Part shown: positions 9,806 to 44,995 of the stretch, piece after piece
Layout of the letters: every line of letters starts with the position of its first letter
Position numbering within the stretch: the stretch's first letter is position 1
Origin: Bugula neritina
Lineage: Eukaryota; Animalia; Bryozoa
DNA: 64,000 bases
Direction: 5' to 3'
Assembly (NCBI GenBank): GCA_964035545.1
Contig: OZ037766.1
Coordinates: 21,626,767 to 21,690,766, forward strand
Made by a program: the position numbers and the translations under genes
The notes under the pieces: model-generated
Told to the model about the DNA's origin: nothing
Seen by the model: the letters and a program-made list of their open reading frames with translations, nothing else
Database searches by the model: none

Positions 9806-10953
9806 GAGTTACTCACTGCAAAATCACAGTAAAATTAGGTGACTAAAACATAGGACAATGAAAAGTTAGATGGGTGCATCTACAAGACCAAACATTTCTG
9901 TCAGCACAAGGACACAAGACTATATAAATGAGTCGAAAGAAGAAATAACTGTCTAGGCCTACAGAGTAATAGCACTGCAGCTAGTCAAAACACTGGGTAT
10001 GAGAGCAAGAATGACAGAATAGTTGAATTGCCACTAGAGGTCGGCAAAGTGTGACTAAATATCACTGTAGAGTCGAAACTGGATATAACTGTGATGCAGA
10101 GAGTATAATGTACAATTAACAGAGAGCCTGTATACCTATATATAACATCAATTTTTCCTTACACATTAACTTGCAATTCTAGCTGTTAGTGTCGTATTTT
10201 ATTTATACTGTTATAGTAATAGTAATAACCACCTCTTTAAAATTATCATCCTAATATTAATAATACTTGCTCTTAGCAATAGTATTAATATTATACTAAT
10301 ACTGATCAACAATTGATTACATAATTATTATTAAAGTTTACTATTACTAATACTGCTACTAGTAATATTAGACTTAGTATTACTAGTAGCAAACATTATA
10401 GATATAAGTAGAATACTCAAATTGACACACTCATACAATTATAGTGATACTAATGGTGCTAGTAAATTATAAATGTAATCTAATAGTTTAGGCTACCCTG
10501 ATAATTATATACTCTTATTGACGTTTAGTTTTACAAGAAATAGTATTACAAATAACAACAAAAATAAATATCAGTGTCACTATCAGTATGAGGATCAGAA
10601 TGATAATCAGGACCATCGACATTGCTAAGAGTTACTGTGACTGTTTTAGTCTATCATTCCATAATTAAGAGTATGACCAAGAGGAAGTCTAACTTAAGCT
10701 TATGACTCAGGGTGAGTGAAGCAGAAATATCAATATCAATATGAATATGAATACCAATACCATGACTATTATCACATTGAGTCTGACACTCACAAGAAAA
10801 CTCAAACTGAATCACAATAATAATATCACTATAATTATAGCATTATTCACAATCATAATGATAATGTAGTTCACTAATTGTAATAATCATAATAAAACCA
10901 CGCAAAACGCCTTCACAGCCACGTCCTATGAGTATCAGTATGAGTATGAGTAT

Positions 10954-11258
10954 TGTGGTGGTTCGTGGAACTACCAGCAGCACAACATGTAGGGTCGCGT
11001 AATTGACCCGGAACAATGGATAGCCAATTAGCGTATTTGATAGTTAGTAGCAATTATAGTTTCCCGCTGCTAAGTCAGTCGAAGCTAGAGTGTCAAATAG
11101 ATTAGATGTATAACTTGTCTGAATATAATGTATCGTTTTTATAATGTATAATTGTGTGTAAAATATACTCGTTCACTCGACTTATCCTGGTGCAGTTCGA
11201 TAGCAAATAAATAGACTCTCTGGATAGCATATCAACCCTAAATCTGAAAAACATAACA
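10954..11258 (+). repeat. 5' LTR (305 bp)
   Basis: Starts TGTGGTGG, ends TAACA; no differences from the 3' copy found by eye; AATAAA at 11206-11211. Confidence 0.97.
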
Positions 11259-11259
11259 G

Positions 11260-11277
11260 TGGTGGCAGCGGTGGGAT
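11260..11277 (+). other. Primer-binding site for tRNA-Leu
   Basis: TGGTGGCAGCGGTGGGAT is the reverse complement of the 3' 18 nt (ATCCCACCGCTGCCACCA) of eukaryotic tRNA-Leu(AAG-type), 1 nt after the LTR. Confidence 0.9.
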
Positions 11278-11289
11278 AGTGCATCCAAG

Positions 11290-12243
11290 ATGGAGACTGA
11301 AAATGCTGGAACTCAACCACCGGCAGTAGAAGGTGAGCGTAGAGACAATGCTGTAGAGACAATGCCTGTTAACCATGTAGTAGAAGAGCGAAGGGTTTCG
11401 CGAGAACTAACTGAAGACCGCTACCGGTTAAAGGCGCCCACCTTCACGGGTGAAGAGGAGGTGGAACAATTTATCCAAGAGTTTAGCGACGTAATGGACG
11501 TCGCCCAGTGGCCCCCTAGGGTGGCCTTGCTGAAGCTTAGAATGGCATTGATGGACAAAGCCAAGCCTTATGGGCTGGGCGTAGACATTGATAATATCTT
11601 TGCTTCTCTGCGGGCCCGCTTCGGCCTCTCTGCTACAGATGCCAGGGCCCGATTGCAGAGGTTGCGGCGTGATCTCCGCACCCCGCTGCGGGAGCACGCC
11701 GCCGCGGTCATGAAGCTGGCACAGATCGCGTACAGCGACTTGCCCCCAGTCAACCGCGAGAGGTATACCCTCGACGCTTTCATAGCATCTGTCGACGATC
11801 TGGGTCTCCACCACCAGTTTCTAGCTAGGGGAGTCACCACCGTTGAAGATGCTCTGACTGAGGGGGAAGCTTACCTCCTAGCTAATCAAATGCATAAAAG
11901 TCGCGGAAGCTCCCGTCAAGTGGAGATAGACCGCGCAGACACGGCCGCGGGACAAGAGGAGGAAACCCCCGCCGCGGCTGCCGTGTCCCAGTTGGCGACG
12001 GCATCGAAAGTCACTCAACTGACAGACATGCTAGCCAAGCTGATAGCCACACTGACACCACAAACCCCAGTGAGTACCGCCCCTGAGCCCATGCAGCCAC
12101 CGGCGCCGCCACCGGGAGAAACAGTCAGTTTTTGCTGGGAGTGCGGAAATCAAGGGCATTTCCGCCGATACTGTCCCTTCCTAAATCAGGGGTTAAACTA
12201 CCGCGGCCCGCAGATGTTCCCACCTCTTGCGGGCCGACGATGA
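11290..12243 (+). CDS. gag: Gag (capsid-like domain plus CCHC zinc knuckle)
   Basis: 317-aa ORF; KAPTFTG capsid-start motif and CWECGNQGHFRRYC knuckle. Confidence 0.95.
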   Translation: METENAGTQPPAVEGERRDNAVETMPVNHVVEERRVSRELTEDRYRLKAPTFTGEEEVEQFIQEFSDVMDVAQWPPRVALLKLRMALMDKAKPYGLGVDIDNIFASLRARFGLSATDARARLQRLRRDLRTPLREHAAAVMKLAQIAYSDLPPVNRERYTLDAFIASVDDLGLHHQFLARGVTTVEDALTEGEAYLLANQMHKSRGSSRQVEIDRADTAAGQEEETPAAAAVSQLATASKVTQLTDMLAKLIATLTPQTPVSTAPEPMQPPAPPPGETVSFCWECGNQGHFRRYCPFLNQGLNYRGPQMFPPLAGRR

Positions 12244-15200
12244 AACCCCCAGGGAAGAAGAAACGCAGGTCACCCAGACGGGTACCGCGTACTGGCAACC
12301 AACAGTGGCAACAGCCACGACGGACCAGCAAGGGGCTTCGCCCCGCGGCTGCCTTTTCTATGCCCCTTCACAACAGATTCACAGGGCTACAAGTCCAAGA
12401 ATCTGGATGGGAGCCCACAAAGGTAGCCGGGAATCTAGCCTCGGCACCCCCGAGGCCTACCTACCACCGCCCCAAGAGACCTCCTTCGCGACCCAAAGCG
12501 AGAGAGGTACTCCCTGCGAGAGTAAGGCCTGAAGAGAGAGTTCAGGTGCAGCCTCATGGGAACAGCTATTTCTTGCCCGGTAAACTGGAAGGCAAAGCTG
12601 TTACTTTCCTCATTGATTCGGGCTGTACCACAAACCTCTTAAGCCGCCAACTCTTCGACACCCTCAGTGCTAGGGTCAGGGGCGAGATGGAATCATACGA
12701 AGGGGAATACGGCACCCTAGCTGACGGGTCGTGCCTTCCCTTCTATGGTATAATTGAGCTGACGGGACGAGTCCGTGATCAAACGATCCAAGAGACGTTC
12801 ATAGTCAGTCAGCTCAAGGAGGATGCTATCCTCGAGATGCCGTTCCTAAAACGGCACGGATGTCACATAGATTTTAGCAGATCTGCCATGATGATGTCCG
12901 GGCGGGAACTCGCCTGCGTCGACAAGTTCGGCCGCCCTTTAGTGGGAGGTGTGCATGTGGTACGCAACCGTATCATACCAGGCCGCTCCCGGGCTACCAT
13001 TCACTGCAGGGTGAATAATAGCCGGATCTCTGGACTCGGGGTAGTTGAAGGCGCGCACGAAAAGATCCAACTTGCCAGCAGTCTGAATCAGCTGACTGAG
13101 CAAGGGGAGATCTTAGTGCAGTGCGTCAACCCCTTTACCGAGTCTATCAAGCTCCCAGCTGGGTCGATGCTGGGCCGTTTTCACTTTGTTCAGGAGGAAG
13201 ACGTAGGCCCGTCGCTGGGTGATGCGACAGAGGCACTCCCTCAGTGCCCTACTCAAGGGCGAGGGGCAGTCCCCACACATCTCCGGGAGTTGTATGACAC
13301 AGCCTGTAGCGGCTGCGCGAGTAACAGAGAACGCCAAGTTATGGCTAAGTTACTACGCGACTACGGTGATGTGTTCAGCAGCGGAGAGCATGACGTGGGA
13401 CTGACTGGAATTGTCAGACACGAAATACCGCTGACTGCAGGGACAGTCCCTGTCCGGCAGCCCACACGCAGGCTGGGGCCGGAGAAAGAGAAAGAGGTTA
13501 GCCGACAAGTACGGGATCTTTTGGACCGGGGACTGATAGAGCCCGCCCATAGTGCGTGGAGCTCGCCAGTCGTACTGGTCCGGAAGAAAGATGGCAGTTG
13601 GCGGTTCTGTGTGGATTACCGCAAACTCAATAGCGTAACCATACAGGACGCCTACCCTCTACCTCGTATTGACGAGTCATTGGACGCCCTAGCCGGCAGC
13701 AAGTACTTCAGTACGTTAGACTTGCTAAGCGGCTATTGGCAAATTCCTCTGAGTCCCGACGCCCAAGAGAAAGCGGCGTTTATCACACGGGACGGTTTGT
13801 GGAAGTGGAAGGTGCTGCCTTTCGGGTTGACCTCCGCCCCAGCCACCTTCCAGAGGCTGATGGAGCAAGTCCTCAGCGGGCTCCATTGGAAGACACTGCT
13901 GATCTACCTCGATGATGTCATCGTGATCTCCCCAGACTTCGAGACACATGTCAGTCGTCTGCAGGAGGTCTTTGAGAGACTCCGAGGTGCCGGTCTTAAG
14001 CTCAAGCCTTCTAAGTGCGCTCTATTGCAGACAGAGGTTAAGTACCTGGGGCACGTTGTCGGTCGAAACGGCGTGGCAACGGATCCCGAGAAGGTACGGG
14101 CAATAGAAGACTGGGTCACCCCCCAAGACCTGACCGGACTCCGGGCTTTCTTGGGGCTGGTAGGGTATTACAGACAATACATACCAGACTTTGCGGGCAT
14201 AGCACAGCCGTTAAACCGGCTCACCGCAAAGGGAGTGACGTGGCAGTGGACCCCAGTCGAACAAGAAGCGTTCGACCGCCTCAAGGGCTGCCTACTAACG
14301 GCGCCCATCTTGGCCTACCCAGACCCCACTCTGGAGTACATCCTCGACACCGACGCCAGTGACCAAAATGTTGGCGCTGTGCTGTCGCAAGTGCAAGAAG
14401 GCCGAGAAGTAGTAGTAGCCTACTACAGCAAGTCTCTCTCACCCACTGAACGAAACTACTGCACTACCCGCAAGGAGCTGCTGGCAGTAATCAAGTCAGT
14501 GAAGCACTTCAGACCATACCTATATGGCAGGAAGTTCCGGCTGCGTACGGATCATGCCTCGCTGATCTGGTTGTGCAAGAGAGCAGAGCCCTCTAGTCAG
14601 GTCGCCCGGTGGCTCGAAATCCTAGCTGAATTCTCATACCGGATCGAACATCGACCGGGCAAGAGACACAGCAATGCGGATGGGTTGAGTCGCCGACCTG
14701 ACGGAGGTTGCAAACAGTGTCTCCACATCGAGAGGAGGGATGGAGGTCCCCCGCGATGCGAGTTGGAGACGCTGGCTCACCACGGAGCACCGTTTGACTG
14801 GGACCAGGGTCAACTCAGGCAAGGAGTTGATGAGTCCCCGGAGGGTGTACAAAACCTCCGCGCCAACCCTGTACTGGCCGGTAATGTTCAAGAGCTGAAG
14901 AAGCTCCAAGAAGAGCTGCCTGGAGTCGTGGCAGACATATACCGGGCCAAAAGGGAAGGGCGACGACCCGGCGAGGAACGCATACGACAGGGATGCGCCG
15001 AGTTCCGGCTATACTGTCAGCGTTGGGACTCGCTGCGGATCGGGCAGGATGGGTTACTAACCATCTCTCTAGCTGCCAGCGGCAGACACCCGGAAAGGAA
15101 GAGGGTAGTCTGCCCCACGGCCATCCGCCGTGAGTTGATTTGGGATACTCACAAACAGGCCCACGCAGGGGTCAAGAGAGTGATGTCCAAATTACGACTC

Positions 15201-16763
15201 CGGTGGCATTGGCCACAAATGGAGCGTGACGTCCGACTCAGAGTCAAACAGTGTGAGATCTGCCAGGCCAGTAAGCATAGCCGCCCCCCTGGTGAAGCAG
15301 GACGGCGGAGGCTATATGCTGGTAGGCCCTGGCAAGTAGTCGCTGTAGACCTGGTCGGACCCATGCCCCTGACCCCCAGAGGCAATAATTGGATCCTAGT
15401 ACTAACCGACCACTTTACTAGGTGGGCGGATGCTCTGGCTATCCCAGATGCGTCAGCCCCAACAGTGGCCAGGGCACTAGACCAACATGTATTCTGTTAT
15501 TTTGGGCTCCCCGAACAGATACACTCTGACCAAGGCGCTCAATTCCAGTCTCAACTGATGAGCGACCTTTGCCACCTCTGGGGAGTAAATCAGAGCAGGA
15601 CCACCCCCTACCACCCTCAAGGTAACGGGGTGGTGGAGCGCAACAACCGGATGCTAGGTGATGCACTCCGGAGTCTCCTCCTTGGACGAGGTCAAGAGGA
15701 ATGGGATACGGTGTTGCCGCAAGTCATGCGTGCATATCGTAGCACCCCACACACCAGTACTGGTGAGACCCCAAACCTCTTGATGCTCGGGAGAGAGACT
15801 CGTGTCCCTGACCATCTCACCTATCACGTTCCAGAGCAAGGCAACTCGGTTCATGAGTATGCCAGTGAACTAGTGGAACGGATGAAGGCCGCACACGATA
15901 TACTGCGCGAACAGCAGTGGAAGGTGCGGCACGAAGATTCCGATGAACCACCCCTCTACCAAACGGGAGATAAGGTGTGGATGGTCAATTACCGTAAGCG
16001 TCGCGGACAGGCTGATAAACTGAAGCCTAAGTTCGTAGGACCCTACGTGATCGTCGAGGCTATGCCCAATCATACGTACAAGATTGAGCGCTCAGGACAG
16101 GTGTCTATCCAGAATGAGTCTTGCTTGAAACCGTATTGGGCTAGCCCCGACGGAGTGGGAGAAGCCCCCCCGTTGTTAGAGCCCAGGAGGCAAACAACAA
16201 CGCGCGGGCGACGGCGGCATGGACCTGAATACGAAGTGGTCATACCGCGGGAAGAAAACTTGGTGAGAGAGGAGCGGCAGCTTTTGTCAACAGAAGCGTG
16301 TCCGCCACCGCCAAGTCTAATTCCATCACTTCCGGAAACCGAGCCGGTTCCGGAAGTGCAAACCCCCACGGAGGGAGGGGCTCCATCCGGAGAACAAGAA
16401 GAGGTGACCGCTAACGGTGAAGTAGAGACGCCATTAGAGGCCCCTACTAACGAACCGGCAAGCGTGTCACCCCCCCTAGAAAGGGGACAGCGTACGAGGC
16501 AACCCCCCGCATACTTGAAGGACTTCATATGCGACTGCGTTAAAAGCGGCGTGTATGAAAGTCTAGGGGAAAACCGTACGAGAAAAGTATCGAGCAAATG
16601 TGGGAGTTGTCAACACCACGGAAATATCAACTTTTGTATCGGCGGAAATAGAAACAAAATTCATCCGCCGGGTGCACAAAGTCCTAATCACGCACCCCAA
16701 CCACGTTGCTCGATCTTTTCATACGCTGATGCAGTCAGGAGTAGACGTGTTTATAAGCAGTAG
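12132..16763 (+). CDS. pol: Pol polyprotein (protease, RT, RNase H, integrase), entered by -1 frameshift near 12198
   Basis: FLIDSG protease, LPFGL and YLDD RT, DTDAS RNase H, HHCC plus D-D-E integrase (VAVD, HSDQG, VVER), GPY/F motif; no stop codons. Confidence 0.97.
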   Translation: MLGVRKSRAFPPILSLPKSGVKLPRPADVPTSCGPTMKPPGKKKRRSPRRVPRTGNQQWQQPRRTSKGLRPAAAFSMPLHNRFTGLQVQESGWEPTKVAGNLASAPPRPTYHRPKRPPSRPKAREVLPARVRPEERVQVQPHGNSYFLPGKLEGKAVTFLIDSGCTTNLLSRQLFDTLSARVRGEMESYEGEYGTLADGSCLPFYGIIELTGRVRDQTIQETFIVSQLKEDAILEMPFLKRHGCHIDFSRSAMMMSGRELACVDKFGRPLVGGVHVVRNRIIPGRSRATIHCRVNNSRISGLGVVEGAHEKIQLASSLNQLTEQGEILVQCVNPFTESIKLPAGSMLGRFHFVQEEDVGPSLGDATEALPQCPTQGRGAVPTHLRELYDTACSGCASNRERQVMAKLLRDYGDVFSSGEHDVGLTGIVRHEIPLTAGTVPVRQPTRRLGPEKEKEVSRQVRDLLDRGLIEPAHSAWSSPVVLVRKKDGSWRFCVDYRKLNSVTIQDAYPLPRIDESLDALAGSKYFSTLDLLSGYWQIPLSPDAQEKAAFITRDGLWKWKVLPFGLTSAPATFQRLMEQVLSGLHWKTLLIYLDDVIVISPDFETHVSRLQEVFERLRGAGLKLKPSKCALLQTEVKYLGHVVGRNGVATDPEKVRAIEDWVTPQDLTGLRAFLGLVGYYRQYIPDFAGIAQPLNRLTAKGVTWQWTPVEQEAFDRLKGCLLTAPILAYPDPTLEYILDTDASDQNVGAVLSQVQEGREVVVAYYSKSLSPTERNYCTTRKELLAVIKSVKHFRPYLYGRKFRLRTDHASLIWLCKRAEPSSQVARWLEILAEFSYRIEHRPGKRHSNADGLSRRPDGGCKQCLHIERRDGGPPRCELETLAHHGAPFDWDQGQLRQGVDESPEGVQNLRANPVLAGNVQELKKLQEELPGVVADIYRAKREGRRPGEERIRQGCAEFRLYCQRWDSLRIGQDGLLTISLAASGRHPERKRVVCPTAIRRELIWDTHKQAHAGVKRVMSKLRLRWHWPQMERDVRLRVKQCEICQASKHSRPPGEAGRRRLYAGRPWQVVAVDLVGPMPLTPRGNNWILVLTDHFTRWADALAIPDASAPTVARALDQHVFCYFGLPEQIHSDQGAQFQSQLMSDLCHLWGVNQSRTTPYHPQGNGVVERNNRMLGDALRSLLLGRGQEEWDTVLPQVMRAYRSTPHTSTGETPNLLMLGRETRVPDHLTYHVPEQGNSVHEYASELVERMKAAHDILREQQWKVRHEDSDEPPLYQTGDKVWMVNYRKRRGQADKLKPKFVGPYVIVEAMPNHTYKIERSGQVSIQNESCLKPYWASPDGVGEAPPLLEPRRQTTTRGRRRHGPEYEVVIPREENLVREERQLLSTEACPPPPSLIPSLPETEPVPEVQTPTEGGAPSGEQEEVTANGEVETPLEAPTNEPASVSPPLERGQRTRQPPAYLKDFICDCVKSGVYESLGENRTRKVSSKCGSCQHHGNINFCIGGNRNKIHPPGAQSPNHAPQPRCSIFSYADAVRSRRVYKQ
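12192..12236 (+). promoter_or_regulatory. -1 programmed ribosomal frameshift signal
   Basis: Heptamer G_TTA_AAC (12192-12198) in gag frame, 5-nt spacer, perfect 9-bp stem CGGCCCGCA (12204-12212) / TGCGGGCCG (12228-12236); pol is in the -1 frame. Confidence 0.8.
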
Positions 16764-16787
16764 TCCAAACCATTTCACACATTAAGT

Positions 16788-17859
16788 ATGTCTTACGACA
16801 ACAGATCGTGGGGTGAGTTAACTATATCTTAATACGAAACTAGATTGCATCACTCAGCTCCGACTCACTGAGTCAATTGAGCTGGAGATAGGTTAGTGAA
16901 ATACCGTAGTAAGAACTCAGTTTGACTTAGAGATTTTTATAATCTCATTGCAATGCGTGTTCTATCTGACTATTCACTACCACAAATCTCTACGAGGTAA
17001 CTGAATTAGGAGTTGCCAAGCTATTCAAGCTGACAACACGGCAGTGTACTGTATTAACACTGTTGAAACTTTTTCAGATTACACTCGACCCGCTACAACC
17101 AGGGTACGGGATAGAACACTTCCCGCTCCACATCCGGAGGAGTATGCTAGTGGTGACCGGCCTGAGCCACTACGCCGCCGTTGGCGGTGGGTGGCTCCAC
17201 AAACAGAAGAAGAAATAGAAACGGCCTGGGGGTCCAGAGGACAGACGAGATGCCAGATTTGTGGTGAAGAATGCGCCTCTCACCGCTCCCTGAAACTACA
17301 CGTCAATGCTCATCTCCTACTAACATTCTGCCCCTGCGGGTACAATGATGTGTATCCCTACCCCGTCACCAGACATCGAGCGACGGGCTGTTTCCCTGGA
17401 GAAAACTACGTGGTCGACGCTAAGCTATACCCGGAGTTCCTCACACTTATACGACCCCTGGTGAAGAAGGCCATGCTGTTAGCCGTTCTGTCCTCGGGGT
17501 TCCAACGTGTATTAGACAACGCCCGCCAACAATCCCCGTTGGTGTCTGACCGCCCTCAGATTACATACACCCCCGAGGAGATTACATATCCAGAAGAAGG
17601 AGAGATCTCCCCTGCCCCGACGAAGAGACGAACTAGGTCCCCCAGTCCCCCCTTGCGCCGCAGACGGACACCGTCCCCAGACCCAGTACGCCTGGCCACA
17701 GTAGAAGAACGCCTCCTGCGACTACAAGAAGAATTCACCCAGCTGGCACCAGATCTACTTAACACTACAACAGGACTCTTCCAGCTAAAGGGATCCGTAT
17801 GCCGTATGAAACGGAAACTGCGTACATGCCAAGCCAAGCACCGGCGTGCCCAACAATGA
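16788..17859 (+). CDS. Spliced accessory ORF3 of the retrotransposon: zinc-finger, Arg/Ser/Pro-rich, coiled-coil protein (~268-274 aa)
   Basis: Main exon 17078-17859 follows acceptor TTTTTCAG. In-frame phase-1 donors at 16812 (mini-exon MSYDNRSW, G|GTGAGT) and 11332 (gag leader, AAG|GTGAGC). C2H2 finger CQICGEECASHRSLKLHVNAH. Confidence 0.75.
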
Positions 17860-18120
17860 CTCTGGTTCTGCTGCCGGAATAATCTGCCATTTCATCCTCT
17901 TGGGGAACCCAGGACCTCGTGTAAATGCTTGACTGCTCGACAGGTTATTCCCTGTCTAACCCCACAGCTAGCCGGTATCCCTCGTCTATAGCTGGTCAAT
18001 TGTAGGTAACGGATTGTTACAATGACTCTGCCTATTATTATGTCTCTTCCTGTGTATTATGTATTATTTTTGTCCACTGATGTATGCGGTTACTAATGAA
18101 TGTTTTTTTTTATATATATC

Positions 18121-18150
18121 AGAAAGAGGGCTTTCTGCTGGTGGGGGCGG
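18121..18150 (+). other. Purine-rich tract (PPT region) before the 3' LTR
   Basis: AGAAAGAGGG...GGTGGGGGCGG abuts the 3' LTR and includes a small hairpin CAGAAAG/CTTTCTG. Confidence 0.7.
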
Positions 18151-18455
18151 TGTGGTGGTTCGTGGAACTACCAGCAGCACAACATGTAGGGTCGCGTAAT
18201 TGACCCGGAACAATGGATAGCCAATTAGCGTATTTGATAGTTAGTAGCAATTATAGTTTCCCGCTGCTAAGTCAGTCGAAGCTAGAGTGTCAAATAGATT
18301 AGATGTATAACTTGTCTGAATATAATGTATCGTTTTTATAATGTATAATTGTGTGTAAAATATACTCGTTCACTCGACTTATCCTGGTGCAGTTCGATAG
18401 CAAATAAATAGACTCTCTGGATAGCATATCAACCCTAAATCTGAAAAACATAACA
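18151..18455 (+). repeat. 3' LTR (305 bp)
   Basis: Direct repeat of 10954-11258, followed by TSD GTAT. Confidence 0.97.
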
Positions 18456-19029
18456 GTATCACCATCAGCATACAAATACAGATCAGAGGTAATCAGAGAG
18501 TTACAGTATCAGTATGAGTATGTAAAAGTAAAATGTATTAACTTATTGAATAACTTACTGTTCTTAGACTAAGACTTATACTTAACTTAATCATTGTGAT
18601 TATGATTATAATGATAATCTCAATGATGATGATTAGATTTAGAAATACTCAAAAGTCAAAGTCAAATACTGAAATAGAATAAGAATCATACCAATAAATT
18701 TAATTATTCATAATAGCAAATGTGAAATTTTATGCTTTATTGATATGGAGATTTAAAATTATTGATATCAACATGAGTACCAATATTAATATACTTTCAT
18801 TGTCACAAACTTCACAGTTTATACATTTGCCATACCATAGTGATAGTAATACTAATAGTCATTGAATGATTGATCAGTGTTGAAAACTTCGAGTTTTTCA
18901 TAAAGACGAACTTGACTCGTGGTTTAGATCTAGTAAGTTTAAACTTTGAGTATCATTATAAGAATATTAAAATCGAGCACTCATTTTTCGGCTGTAATAT
19001 TTTCAGATCCCAGACTAGTTTCTGTTCAA

Positions 19030-41295: not shown

Positions 41296-44200
41296 ATGAC
41301 CAGCAAAAAGGTGAGTAGTTTTTTTAAATGCAAATTTGATTAAATAAATTCTACTTTATAACTTGGTCTTATGAGTTATGAGGCCATTTTATTTATTATT
41401 ATAATTATATACATGCACATAATATTCTAGAAATGTGCACAAATTGTGCTATGTTTATCATTATGCTGATTGGATAGTTGTAAATGGAAAGAAATAGTAC
41501 AACCAGTTATAAAAGCTTATTGCTGGTCAGCCTTTAATAGGCATAAGTTTATCGTTGCATTTTGTTTAATTTGTCCTGATTTTATTTTGTATAGAATATG
41601 CAAAGATAAAAGAGTTTATAGAACAAATGTTACTTTAAATTTTTGATCAATAAATTAATTGATGTCTTTACAGAGCATCCTTGAACGCTTGGACGAGGGT
41701 GTGGTAGTCGGAGATGGCGGCTTTGTGTTTGCTCTGGAGAAACGAGGCTATGTCAAGGCTGGACCTTGGACTCCAGAGGCAACCATTGAGCATCCTGAAG
41801 CTGGTAAAAAATAGTAAAAACGAAAAGGGGCAATGCCAAGGGGCAATGTCAAGGGGCAATGTCAAGGGGGAGTTTACAGGCATGTACTTTACTTTTATGG
41901 GCCGTTTTCTATGGAAGCAGGACTTGTGGTGTTCCTAAGTATTGCTAAAACAATTTCAGATTGAGAAATGTTTTTTTAAATTCAGTCATTAGAAATACTA
42001 TCTTTATAAACTGTTGCTGACAAAGTTTTTCTGAATTTTTTTTATTTCAATAACCTAAACTTTGAGAATAACTTGAAACCCATTAATATTATTAAGGCTG
42101 CAAAGAAGTTTCTTACTCTTGAAATGTGCTCCATATATCCTAGACATTGGCGCAATTTCTTTAATGCTGAACATCTGGATGTTGTATTTTATAGTAAGAC
42201 AACTCCATAGAGAGTTTCTCCGAGCTGGTTCAACTGTGATGCAGGCTTTCACTTTCTATGCTAGTGATGATAAGTTGGCCAACAGAGGGAACGAGGCATC
42301 TCAAAAACTAACTGTAGGTCTACTTCTAGTGTTGATTTACTTGAAAAGGATTTGTCTAGTCATGTGTCTGAAAAATAATTGCCCCAACTGGGATTCGAAC
42401 CCAAGACCTCTGACTTGCAAGCAAGTTTGCTAGCCATCGCACCACAGGGACCACTGGGTAAACTCACCACTACAGTATCTTTAGTGCTTTTAGTTGCTGA
42501 TAATTACATGTTTGTCCTGGTACAGCATATACTGAGTTTATTTATTTATATTTCCTATAGAATTTCTTCGTTGTAACATAAAACTTAAAGCTATATATTT
42601 GTAAAAATGCTGTTGCTTGGACCGTTATTTAGGCTAATATTAGCTGTTCCGATATCTCGAGTAAAAGCTTTCCAAAATTGTTTTTTCAAAATTTTAGCAA
42701 AACTTTTTGGAAAATTATTTTGTAGTGTGCTGCAATAAATGAAGCTGCCTGTGAGCTAGCCAGAGAAGTAGCTGATGAAGGGGATGCACTTGTTGCGGGT
42801 GGTATATCGCAAACCCCCACTTATCTGAGTGGTGGTAGCAAAGAAGAAGTTCAAGCTCAGTACAAGCAACAGCTTGATCAATTTGTTAAATGTGGAGTAG
42901 ACTTTTTGATTTGTGAAGTAAGTGGTTTAAATAATGCAATTCTTTATGACTATTTACAGGTATTTTTCAAGAAATCATGTAATCATGTCTGTCATATTCT
43001 ACTAGATGAATGTTTTGTATAAGCTGTTACACTTCACTATATTTGATCAATAGGATTATTGCTATGCTTTGACATAATTTTTAGTTTAATTTAAGTAGCT
43101 CTTCCTTGTGTACCTGTAGTTTGTAGTGCTATAATAAAGTTTTAATGAAATTACATTTTCATTTGGTTTTTTGATTTGCAGTACTTTGAGCATATTGAGG
43201 AGCTGGAATGGGCTATTGAAGAGAGCCTTAAGACTGGGATGGCTGTTTGTGCCAACATGTGTATTGGACCAGAGGGAGATCTTCATAATGTATCAGTTGG
43301 AGAATGTGGTGTACGCATGGCTAGAGCAGGTAAACTACTGAGTCCATTTTTCCTTTGAATAAACAGGAAGTTAAACATCATACTTTTCCTGATAGATAGT
43401 CCAAGCCTTAATTGATAAATATGCTATGCATTTTAAGTATAGTTTGTAAATTAGACAATTTAAGCAATAAAAATTGTAAATATTTGTTGCTCAATTAAAA
43501 GCATATAAGTGTAGTTTGCACCAATAACTTCAGCTTTATCAGGGTAGTAAAATACTCAACCCGACTAGAAAACATGGATCTATGTATGTATTTTACAATT
43601 GCTTGCTTTCAGGAGCTCATGTGGTTGGTTTGAACTGCCACTTTGATCCAATGACAACTCTTGATGCAATGCAATTGATGAAGGATGCTTTGGATGAAGC
43701 AAACCTCAAGGTTCATCTCATGTGCCAACCCCTTGCATTCAACACCCCTGACGTATCAAAGCAAGGATTCATCGATCTACCAGAGTTTCCCTTTGGTGAG
43801 CTTTAATTCTTATAAATGTCAAACGTCAATTTTATTCACATACTTGTGAGAGTTTTTGTGTGAAATATTAGAACATCAAAATTCAATATATCCATTTAAA
43901 GCACTTTTTATTGTTTAAAAAAAGTATGTTGAATTTTTTACTTGTTGCTGCTGTAGGTCTTGAGCCAAGGATATTGACAAGGTGGGACATGCATGCCTAC
44001 GCCCGCAGAGCATATGACATGGGAGTCAGGTACATAGGCGGTTGCTGTGGGTTTGAACCCTACCACATTAGAGCAGTGTCTGAGGAGCTGTCTAAGGAGA
44101 TTGGGAAGTTACCAGAAGGTTCTAAAAAGCATGACCCATGGGGAACTGGCTTGAAGATGCACACAAAGCCTTGGGTTAGAGCAAGGTACCAGATATTCAA

Positions 44201-44995
44201 TATAATTTTATTCTTTCTTGTTGCATATTTTCTCGATAGAAGATTTCCCAAGGCTTAACTTGTGTATCTGCAGTTGAGGCTTCTGCAATGTTTGAGTAAG
44301 ATTTTATAAAATTAGCAACTTGCAATTGTTACACCTACTTAATTTACTAGCCATTTTCTTACTAACTGACTTTCCTTTAATACAACAATGTAGTATTAAT
44401 AGGGGCAACTTGGGTAAACTCGTAAAAGTCTGTTCATGACATTGCATGTCAGTGTGCTTTATGTAAACAAGATGGGAAATAAGGAGTTATCCTCCCAATT
44501 GTTCCAATCAATTTTTTATGTTGATGAGGGTTAAATTGTTATTACTTATACCCTTATACCCATTTCTCAATAATATGGCATAGTATAGCATATACATGAG
44601 AATTTAGAGAATTTCTATATTCACTGTAGAGCTTCACGAAACTATTGGGAGGTTCTGCAACCAGCCTCGGGGCGTCCTTTTGCACCCTCATTATCTAAAC
44701 CTGATGCTTGGGGCGTTACTAAGGTGAGACTACGCTACAAATTTTTATAACATGATCATACTGACTCAGAAATCTTGATCAGCAGTCTCATACATAGAAA
44801 TAATGTTGCAGCTTAACCTATTCTCATAATGTGTTGTAATGATTATGTAAACAATGGTTTGATTTGTAGGGCTCAGAGATGTTGAAGCAGCAAACTGATC
44901 GCACTAAAGATGAAGATATCTCCAAGCTACAAGAGTACAAGCATACTCATAGTGGAAAGTGCCACACTCGTCATGGTATTGCTGCTGCATCATGA
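41296..44995 (+). CDS. BHMT: Betaine-homocysteine S-methyltransferase
   Basis: Exons 41296-41310, 41674-41803, 42195-42313, 42726-42917, 43182-43329, 43613-43795, 43957-44185, 44630-44723, 44870-44995. Motifs [66 protein letters not shown]. Confidence 0.97.
42375..42455 (-). mobile_element. tRNA-derived SINE head or tRNA pseudogene in BHMT intron 3
   Basis: Minus-strand A-box TGGTGCGATGG and B-box GGTTCGAATCC; poor acceptor and anticodon stems. Confidence 0.6.

Follow-up and report, generated by a model that had tools for sequence, protein, structure and literature searches.

What does a Ty3/Gypsy retrotransposon encode in the env position when the reading frame found there has no start codon of its own, and what might the product do? 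The element in question lies in the 64,000-nucleotide stretch of Bugula neritina DNA analysed here (the window, from contig OZ037766.1). A first, sequence-only reading had proposed that it encodes a spliced accessory zinc-finger protein that is not Env, with an organisation like that of complex retroviruses. That this frame, ORF3, is a real, spliced, non-env accessory gene appears well supported by the comparisons described below.

An intact Ty3/Gypsy element with a third reading frame

The element is intact, spans 10954-18455 (7.5 kb) and sits within AT-rich DNA (Table 1). It has the paired TG...CA LTRs and target-site duplication of a Ty3/Gypsy element, with a primer-binding site and a purine tract (PPT) beside the LTRs, and Pfam recovers pol in the Ty3/Gypsy order of protease, RT, RNase H and integrase. 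Relatives of the RT are 49-72% identical to the element's own. The two LTRs are identical and are flanked by the GTAT duplication, and the insertion is therefore young. The primer for the binding site is presumably tRNA-Leu. The insertion lies within a degenerate hexamer repeat (GAGTAT-like; 10930-10953 and 18456-18520) that is common in the AT-rich flanks. The pol frame is open at -1 relative to gag, and at the gag-pol junction (12192-12243) the gag stop overlaps a pol-frame ATG (ATGA at 12240); frameshifting and reinitiation are both possible there. Elsewhere in the window, 43872-44258 is a likely host exon with a partial match to homocysteine S-methyltransferase (E 2.8e-7).

Table 1. Features of the element, by position in the window
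Feature	Position	Strand	Description
Target-site duplication, left copy	10950-10953	+	GTAT
5' LTR	10954-11258	+	305 bp, TG...CA, no difference from 3' LTR
Primer-binding site	11260-11277	+	TGG at start
gag	11290-12243	+	317 aa, one CCHC knuckle
gag leader exon	11290-11332	+	14 codons and 1 nt; donor at 11333
Likely -1 frameshift signal	12192-12238	+	heptamer of slippery type with GC-rich stem (z -4.1)
pol frame, stop to stop	12087-16763	+	protease, RT, RNase H, integrase, SH3-like, variable tail
Mini-exon	16788-16812	+	ATG, 8 codons and 1 nt; donor at 16813
Intron	16813-17077	+	265 nt, AT-richer; branch-like site near 17054-17058, then acceptor
ORF3 exon	17078-17859	+	
Two-finger zinc domain	17152-17550	+	compact, helix-wrapped; C2H2, then CxC-x12-H-x4-C
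Basic SP tract	17614-17688	+	confined to subfamily
Predicted coiled coil	17692-17856	+	seven heptads, Arg/Lys-rich helix at end
Purine-rich tract (PPT position)	18140-18150	+	adjoins 3' LTR
3' LTR	18151-18455	+	
Target-site duplication, right copy	18456-18459	+	GTAT

In the interval separating pol from the 3' LTR a third frame is open from 17005 to 17859. The first methionine of the ORF3 exon (from 17078) is residue 132, beyond both zinc fingers. This copy of ORF3 therefore requires an upstream exon, and the proposal of an intact frame in the env slot with no usable 5' ATG holds. Two first exons could supply the start. The gag route begins at the ATG at 11290 and runs for 14 codons and a G to a GTGAGC donor from 11333. 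The mini-exon route begins at the ATG at 16788, past the pol stop at 16761-16763, and runs for 8 codons and a G to a GTGAGT donor from 16813. Both end in phase 1, matching the ORF3 frame, and by arithmetic give products of 274 and 268 amino acids; the two in-frame consensus donors are thus positioned and phased as first described. In a donor scan of the whole 7.5-kb element six sites fitted GTRAGY and four fitted GTRAG preceded by G, and only the sites at 11333 and 16813 passed both tests.

The intron at 16813-17077 has a GC content of 0.38, compared with 0.56 for the ORF3 exon and for pol, which confirms the AT-rich intron of 265 nt. The acceptor, TTTTTCAG, ends at 17077. It had been called strong, a description of which the position and the conservation stand but the pyrimidine tract does not, the site not ranking with the 24 YAG sites richest in pyrimidines (10 or more out of 14). 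It is an acceptor of the short T-rich type, whose strength rests on conservation rather than on the tract. The sequence-only reading also held that keeping an intron implies regulated splicing. This was too strong, since any env-type intron stays in genomic RNA. The small intron would likewise survive if the RNA that bears the mini-exon begins within pol and is no template for reverse transcription.

A conserved ORF3 family

A word-seeded search found 64 ORF3 homologs among 1274 candidates, and an exhaustive search of 1.84 billion representatives found 108, down to 25% identity; the relatives were examined mostly as proteins from metagenome records. Two alignments were used. Alignment A1 combines the window with 53 of the 64 word-seeded matches, which are close relatives, and so holds 54 sequences. 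Alignment A3 holds 94 hand-picked sequences, 61 of them distant; the longest proteins and most of the fragments were excluded from it. Each of the eight zinc ligands is present in 86-98% of the rows of A1 that cover it. Among the 61 distant rows of A3, seven ligands are kept in 95-100% and the last cysteine in 40 of 59. For finger 1 (C-x2-C-x12-H-x3-H) the four ligands are kept in 34/37, 35/37, 36/42 and 40/43 close rows, and in 56/59, 60/60, 59/60 and 60/61 distant rows.

Median identity to the window is 0.77 in the coil (n=50), 0.56 in the zinc domain (n=43) and 0.23-0.27 in the N-terminus and linker. One homolog, P0029, reads through the intron and so provides a baseline, agreeing with the window at 27 of 83 residues in the intron frame, 66 of 124 in the zinc domain and 37 of 52 in the coil. 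The retention of zinc ligands and leucine heptads, and the identity of both domains, above this intron-frame baseline points to selection on the protein. On these comparisons ORF3 is almost certainly a real, selected gene.

Several homologs have ties to this type of element. P0067 ends in a translated purine tract. In P0044, P0201 and P0313 pol-tail sequence is joined to ORF3-type sequence, and P0208 is an ORF3 without the zinc domain; all four are likely deletion derivatives. P0286 and P0295 are single ORFs of 1145-1208 amino acids with a protease 36% identical to that of this pol and an ORF3-type domain near the end; Pfam finds no RT or integrase in them. Locus scans with the ORF3 alignment gave no relative in metagenome or viral contigs, which show presence and not absence, and scans of viral contigs with integrase and RT found none either. 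The RT scan gave 79 loci, none of which matches ORF3 (best E 0.54) or this gag; most of them end at or soon after pol and are therefore of little weight here. Clusters from two Atlas searches were unnamed or labelled C2H2 only, and no description of the family was listed in searches of the openly accessible literature.

A distant homolog at 32% identity, XP_067940964.1, is a gene model, annotated in another bryozoan, Watersipora subatra, that contains the domain twice. This entry and XP_067940963.1 correspond to P0200 and P0293, which have two domain copies and a C-terminal coil and come from a 66.5-Mb record. The gene model may be a domesticated copy, a source gene or an annotated transposon. 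Its existence favours the idea that ORF3 is a captured host gene fragment with no role, which we consider together with an Env-like or fusogenic protein. Both are very improbable and already largely refuted. The host-annotated match is distant, and ORF3 is conserved chiefly at zinc ligands and heptads. Hydropathy over 19 residues peaks at 1.51, in the middle of the protein, and 5 of 53 homologs reach 1.6. Pfam gives no env family, and the fold and Pfam matches listed include no fusion-glycoprotein family or fold. By direct reading both first exons and residues 1-25 are polar, giving no signal peptide. With polar N-termini, a basic C-terminus and no transmembrane anchor, the protein is not Env, as had been proposed. 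The accompanying statement that there is no furin site needs correcting, furin-like R-x-[KR]-R strings being present at residues 193 and 242; these are irrelevant because there is no signal peptide.

The gag-leader junction

A trace of the gag-leader splice was found in the database protein P0022, which opens with the same 14 residues as the Gag protein P0129 and continues directly with the opening of the ORF3 exon. The join coincides exactly with the predicted donor and acceptor. P0022 is alone among 173 ORF3-family proteins in matching a Gag N-terminus. The longest contig of this single record is 5320 bases, about three times the expected spliced element, and it is therefore likely to be a retrotransposed spliced RNA.

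The N-terminus of Gag is reached by 42 of 121 Gag rows, the window's own included. Residue 16 is E in all 42 and is the sole invariant position between 2 and 44; at residue 15, 37 rows have G, 3 have S and 2 have D, and codons for G or S can retain the GT of the donor. For the acceptor, we searched 169 homologs with a motif pattern that itself selects on the downstream side, obtaining 18 matches: 15 have [FL]-[SL]-[DG] at the acceptor, one is P0022 and two lie elsewhere. This motif is compatible with TYAG, and the exchange of S and L is what would be expected if TYAG were held. An acceptor-like motif also lies 57-72 residues before finger 1 in 6 of the 42 scorable proteins from the exhaustive search, the distance in the window being 58. 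The footprints in relatives are read from proteins, not DNA. At that level the splice sites do appear to be kept, as the sequence-only reading would predict, with gag donor codons, acceptor codons and mini-exon footprints found in diverged subfamilies. The gag-leader splice is very probably used.

The mini-exon

The mini-exon was compared at the protein level in 77 pol tails, 36 of which could be anchored; these are related sequences, not independent events. In P0358 the pol tail shifts into the mini-exon frame and reads L-S-M-S, six further residues and then G-K, matching the window's mini-exon in ATG, length and donor position. Ten of the 36 anchored tails end exactly 25 residues past the anchor, in R or G, the endings that the same donor would give in another frame. 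The remaining 25 terminate 5-13 residues past the anchor, before the ATG. P0029 begins with V-S exactly 88 codons before the acceptor, just like the window's intron.

Two further routes to ORF3 were considered and rejected. A Pol-ORF3 read-through fusion is not conserved, as the pol frame relative to the mini-exon varies among subfamilies, and no piece of ORF3 occurs in the 77 pol tails or in 120 Gag relatives. As for an in-frame cassette after the gag leader, only one of the 11 AG sites at 16600-16800 yields a length divisible by three, and that exon would contain the pol stop. It is likely that the mini-exon is kept, though in neither of these two forms, and these footprints make its use probable. 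None of the aligned ORF3 homologs has the mini-exon peptide at its N-terminus, which could be explained by an RNA that starts inside pol and is not reverse transcribable. Double splicing, or reinitiation after a stop, may be alternatives.

At 16712-16736, the end of the variable pol tail, a FSYADAV-like motif is present in 36 of the 77 relatives and may mark an RNA or promoter signal. The same stretch serves as an arm in two inverted repeats, and the mini-exon lies between the arms of one of these. At 16780-16790, just before the mini-exon ATG, run X2 differs by one base, making an acceptor-like triplet; a 26-nt exon from this triplet is out of frame with the gag ATG.

The ORF3 protein

Using a deeper alignment, residues 25-157 (133 amino acids) gave a predicted fold with a pLDDT of 94.7 and a pTM of 0.87. 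The model consists of an N-terminal Trp/helix, the C2H2 finger, the CxC-x12-H-x4-C finger and four helices, and confidently predicts a domain of two packed zinc fingers. The full-length model was poor (pLDDT 58), and fold searches with it, BFVD included, gave nothing at E 0.001. The fold search called for by the sequence-only reading returned no Foldseek match to the domain at E 0.001 and no VIA match at Z of at least 5, and there was no clear whole-domain match in Pfam or the PDB. The lack of a Foldseek or VIA match would not by itself indicate a new fold. What the search did show was that residues ~28-82 of the model overlay tandem C2H2 finger pairs, weakly (Z 3.0-3.6, rmsd 2.7-4.3). In the family profile only finger 1 matches classical C2H2 proteins, with a best E of 6e-8 over four weak stretches, and the best sequence-profile matches are all multi-finger C2H2 proteins, many of them solved on DNA.

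These resemblances favour the view that ORF3 is a DNA-binding dimer that activates the LTR or undoes host silencing, as foamy-virus Tas does, with the mini-exon RNA arising from an internal promoter as the first, basal supply of the protein. This is possible, if somewhat unlikely, and comes close in likelihood to the export role proposed below. In the 61 distant rows the finger helices are indeed basic, with R/K at helix positions 2, 3 and 5 of finger 1 and an R-D pair in finger 2. In the 32 close rows, however, finger 2 has a hydrophobic, proline-rich helix and finger 1 has Leu at position 6, unlike base-reading fingers, and the two fingers are linked by 5 residues rather than by the canonical linker. 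The aromatic core of finger 1 is F in 32 of 60 distant rows and C, L or R in the close rows, and its Pfam score is below the cut-off. An ATG exon conserved where pol ends would suit an internal promoter, comparable to that of Tor env in the accessible part of PMC4402516, but no promoter or binding site was identified in the element, the repeat search giving short repeats only. The DNA-binding view is also favoured by the lack of a clear export signal in ORF3: our scan found none of class 1a, 1b or 2, and two class 1c and four class 3 matches, three of them heptads.

Residues 205-247 form seven heptads, in which 12 of the 13 scored a/d positions are hydrophobic in at least 47 of the 49-53 rows, and a heptad pattern near the end is present in 19 of 61 distant homologs (2.5 expected). 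Residues 241-259 contain 8 K/R and no D/E. A dimer prediction for residues 198-259 scored 0.03. The zinc motifs, Leu-rich heptads and basic tail first described are all present. The SP-repeat tract described with them is specific to a subfamily, its exact form occurring in 2 of 53 aligned homologs and a basic/SP tract in general in 4 of 26 close homologs (0.7 expected) and 6 of 29 distant ones (2.3 expected), too few for a family trait.

The coil being the most conserved part of the protein (see the medians above), ORF3 might instead work together with Gag, integrase or a host protein, acting in the particle, in integration or in copy-number control. The hydrophobic finger 2 could serve as a protein surface, and P0286 unites a protease of this clade and the ORF3 domain in one ORF. 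We think such a role quite unlikely, given pol tails and Gag relatives free of ORF3 pieces and a pol frame too variable for a conserved Pol-ORF3 fusion. Overall the predicted anatomy is that of a soluble, likely oligomeric and likely nuclear nucleic-acid-binding protein made from processed RNA only.

RNA reads and RNA folding

Spliced reads across the two junctions had been put forward as a check on the proposal. The RNA library X1 had a word share of 0.07 and 22 contigs, which missed the junctions, with no depth in the gag-donor bin and almost none at the acceptor. Run X2 gave 6868 contigs on the element at 80% likeness, covering all 30 bins, ORF3 included, and the element is a large family in that run's organism. 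No splice joint was seen in X2 among the four joints at 93% likeness or among the 15 listed of 110 at 80%, and no spliced RNA read was found.

The folding of the RNA was compared with 25 shuffles per scan window. In the spliced-out part 26 of 56 scan windows have z < -2, compared with 0 of 6 inside the ORF3 exon, a signal that is not specific to any response element. At 16254-16503, in the variable pol tail, folding is strong (z -5.4, with 0 of 200 shuffles as stable), making this a candidate response or packaging element. An outlier at 12754-12903 was set aside after its z of -8.2 dropped to -3.9 with 200 shuffles.

A possible role in RNA export

We tentatively propose, by analogy, that ORF3 is a nuclear regulator of the element's own RNA with a role in RNA export, similar to CERV or Rev, a reading we regard as plausible rather than probable. 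LTR transcripts would by default have the gag leader joined to 17078, and a second RNA, perhaps promoted inside pol, would use the mini-exon. The protein would self-associate via its heptads and bind nucleic acid through its basic segments. In the nucleus it would then let unspliced genome RNA evade splicing and exit, as CERV does. We prefer the export role because the layout matches one tested Gypsy case, because the coil ends in an Arg-rich helix, because finger 2 of the close family is without base-reading residues and because the spliced-out RNA is broadly structured and the ORF3 exon is not.

Comparison with known systems

The tested case is CERV of Cer1, a Ty3/Gypsy element of C. elegans. 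In the accessible text of PMC10309623, CERV is a non-env ORF that lies after pol and before the 3' LTR and that is required for export of the genome RNA, is spliced to gag-frame exons and is absent from unspliced RNA. The same text describes a protein of 517 amino acids whose mRNA has 5 exons and which carries a C4-type loop, M and G domains, a candidate zinc site, a leucine zipper and an NLS, and states that it has no obvious homology outside nematodes. The contrast that the sequence-only reading drew with 'simple' Gypsy elements overlooked this spliced non-env regulator. ORF3 is like CERV in being a non-env ORF in the env slot with a gag-frame splice layout, inferred here from sequence rather than from an RNA read. 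It also resembles CERV in its candidate features (zinc site, leucine zipper, NLS) and would likewise be missing from unspliced RNA. It is unlike CERV in its length of 268-274 amino acids, in taking only 14 residues from Gag, in its C2H2 and C2HC fingers and C-terminal coil, and in having a second, dedicated ATG exon. CERV was not identified among the ORF3 homologs of either search, in which matches are mostly unnamed, and the two are set apart by published description (length, zinc motif) rather than by sequence alignment.

In Oikopleura, according to the accessible part of PMC4402516, the env of Tor3a and Tor3b/4b is expressed by splicing from a donor near the start of gag or by way of an internal promoter that lies within pol or after it. 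The Tor elements use one route per group and make a transmembrane Env, whereas here both first exons are apparently present in one element and the product would be soluble. The spliced env of other Gypsy elements is not known to need a Rev-like factor, a point against the export role. HTLV Tax/Rex and foamy-virus Tas are small regulators from spliced RNA, and in tax/rex a short exon near the end of pol supplies the ATG, which the mini-exon resembles. ORF3 would be like these and HIV Rev as a small regulator from spliced RNA; it differs from the complex retroviruses in having no env, no clear export signal and no sequence or BFVD fold match to them.

Bdelloid Gypsy elements have ORF3 types, family-wide extra ORFs placed past pol and ahead of the 3' LTR, for which zinc and finger terms are absent from the accessible text (PMC5408684), and plant aORFs such as Retand TRP28 and Grande occupy the same position (PMC7264820, PMC11963269). 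As far as these texts extend, such ORFs encode enzymes, transmembrane or coiled-coil proteins or are antisense genes, unlike the two-finger ORF3. The accessible text of PMC13524379 and PMC8556966 contains nothing on such an ORF. Compared with classical tandem C2H2 proteins (HIC2, SALL, ZBTB, Kaiso), ORF3 has similar finger 1 spacing and a weak finger-pair overlay, but its CxC...H...C second finger, 5-residue link and extra helices would give one globular domain.

CERV already provides the spliced non-env design; what appears to be undescribed is the protein family, together with the second first exon. A broader view is speculative and, we think, rather unlikely. In it, an old and as yet undescribed two-finger domain would mark a broad invertebrate group of 'complex' Gypsy elements that reached the complex-retrovirus design independently. 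Two first exons would supply one regulator and act as an early/late switch, the gag leader being driven by the LTR and the mini-exon by an internal promoter, and the domain would have entered a bryozoan host gene. For the export of intron-containing genome RNA by LTR retrotransposons, CERV is the one tested Gypsy answer in the accessible texts found in print. ORF3 would be a second candidate regulator, apparently unrelated to CERV and much smaller. Its proposed splice sites are exact, its domain is modelled with confidence and its family counts more than 100 homologs, and the question is testable with small reporters. It bears on the question of whether Rev- or Tas-like regulators arose more than once.
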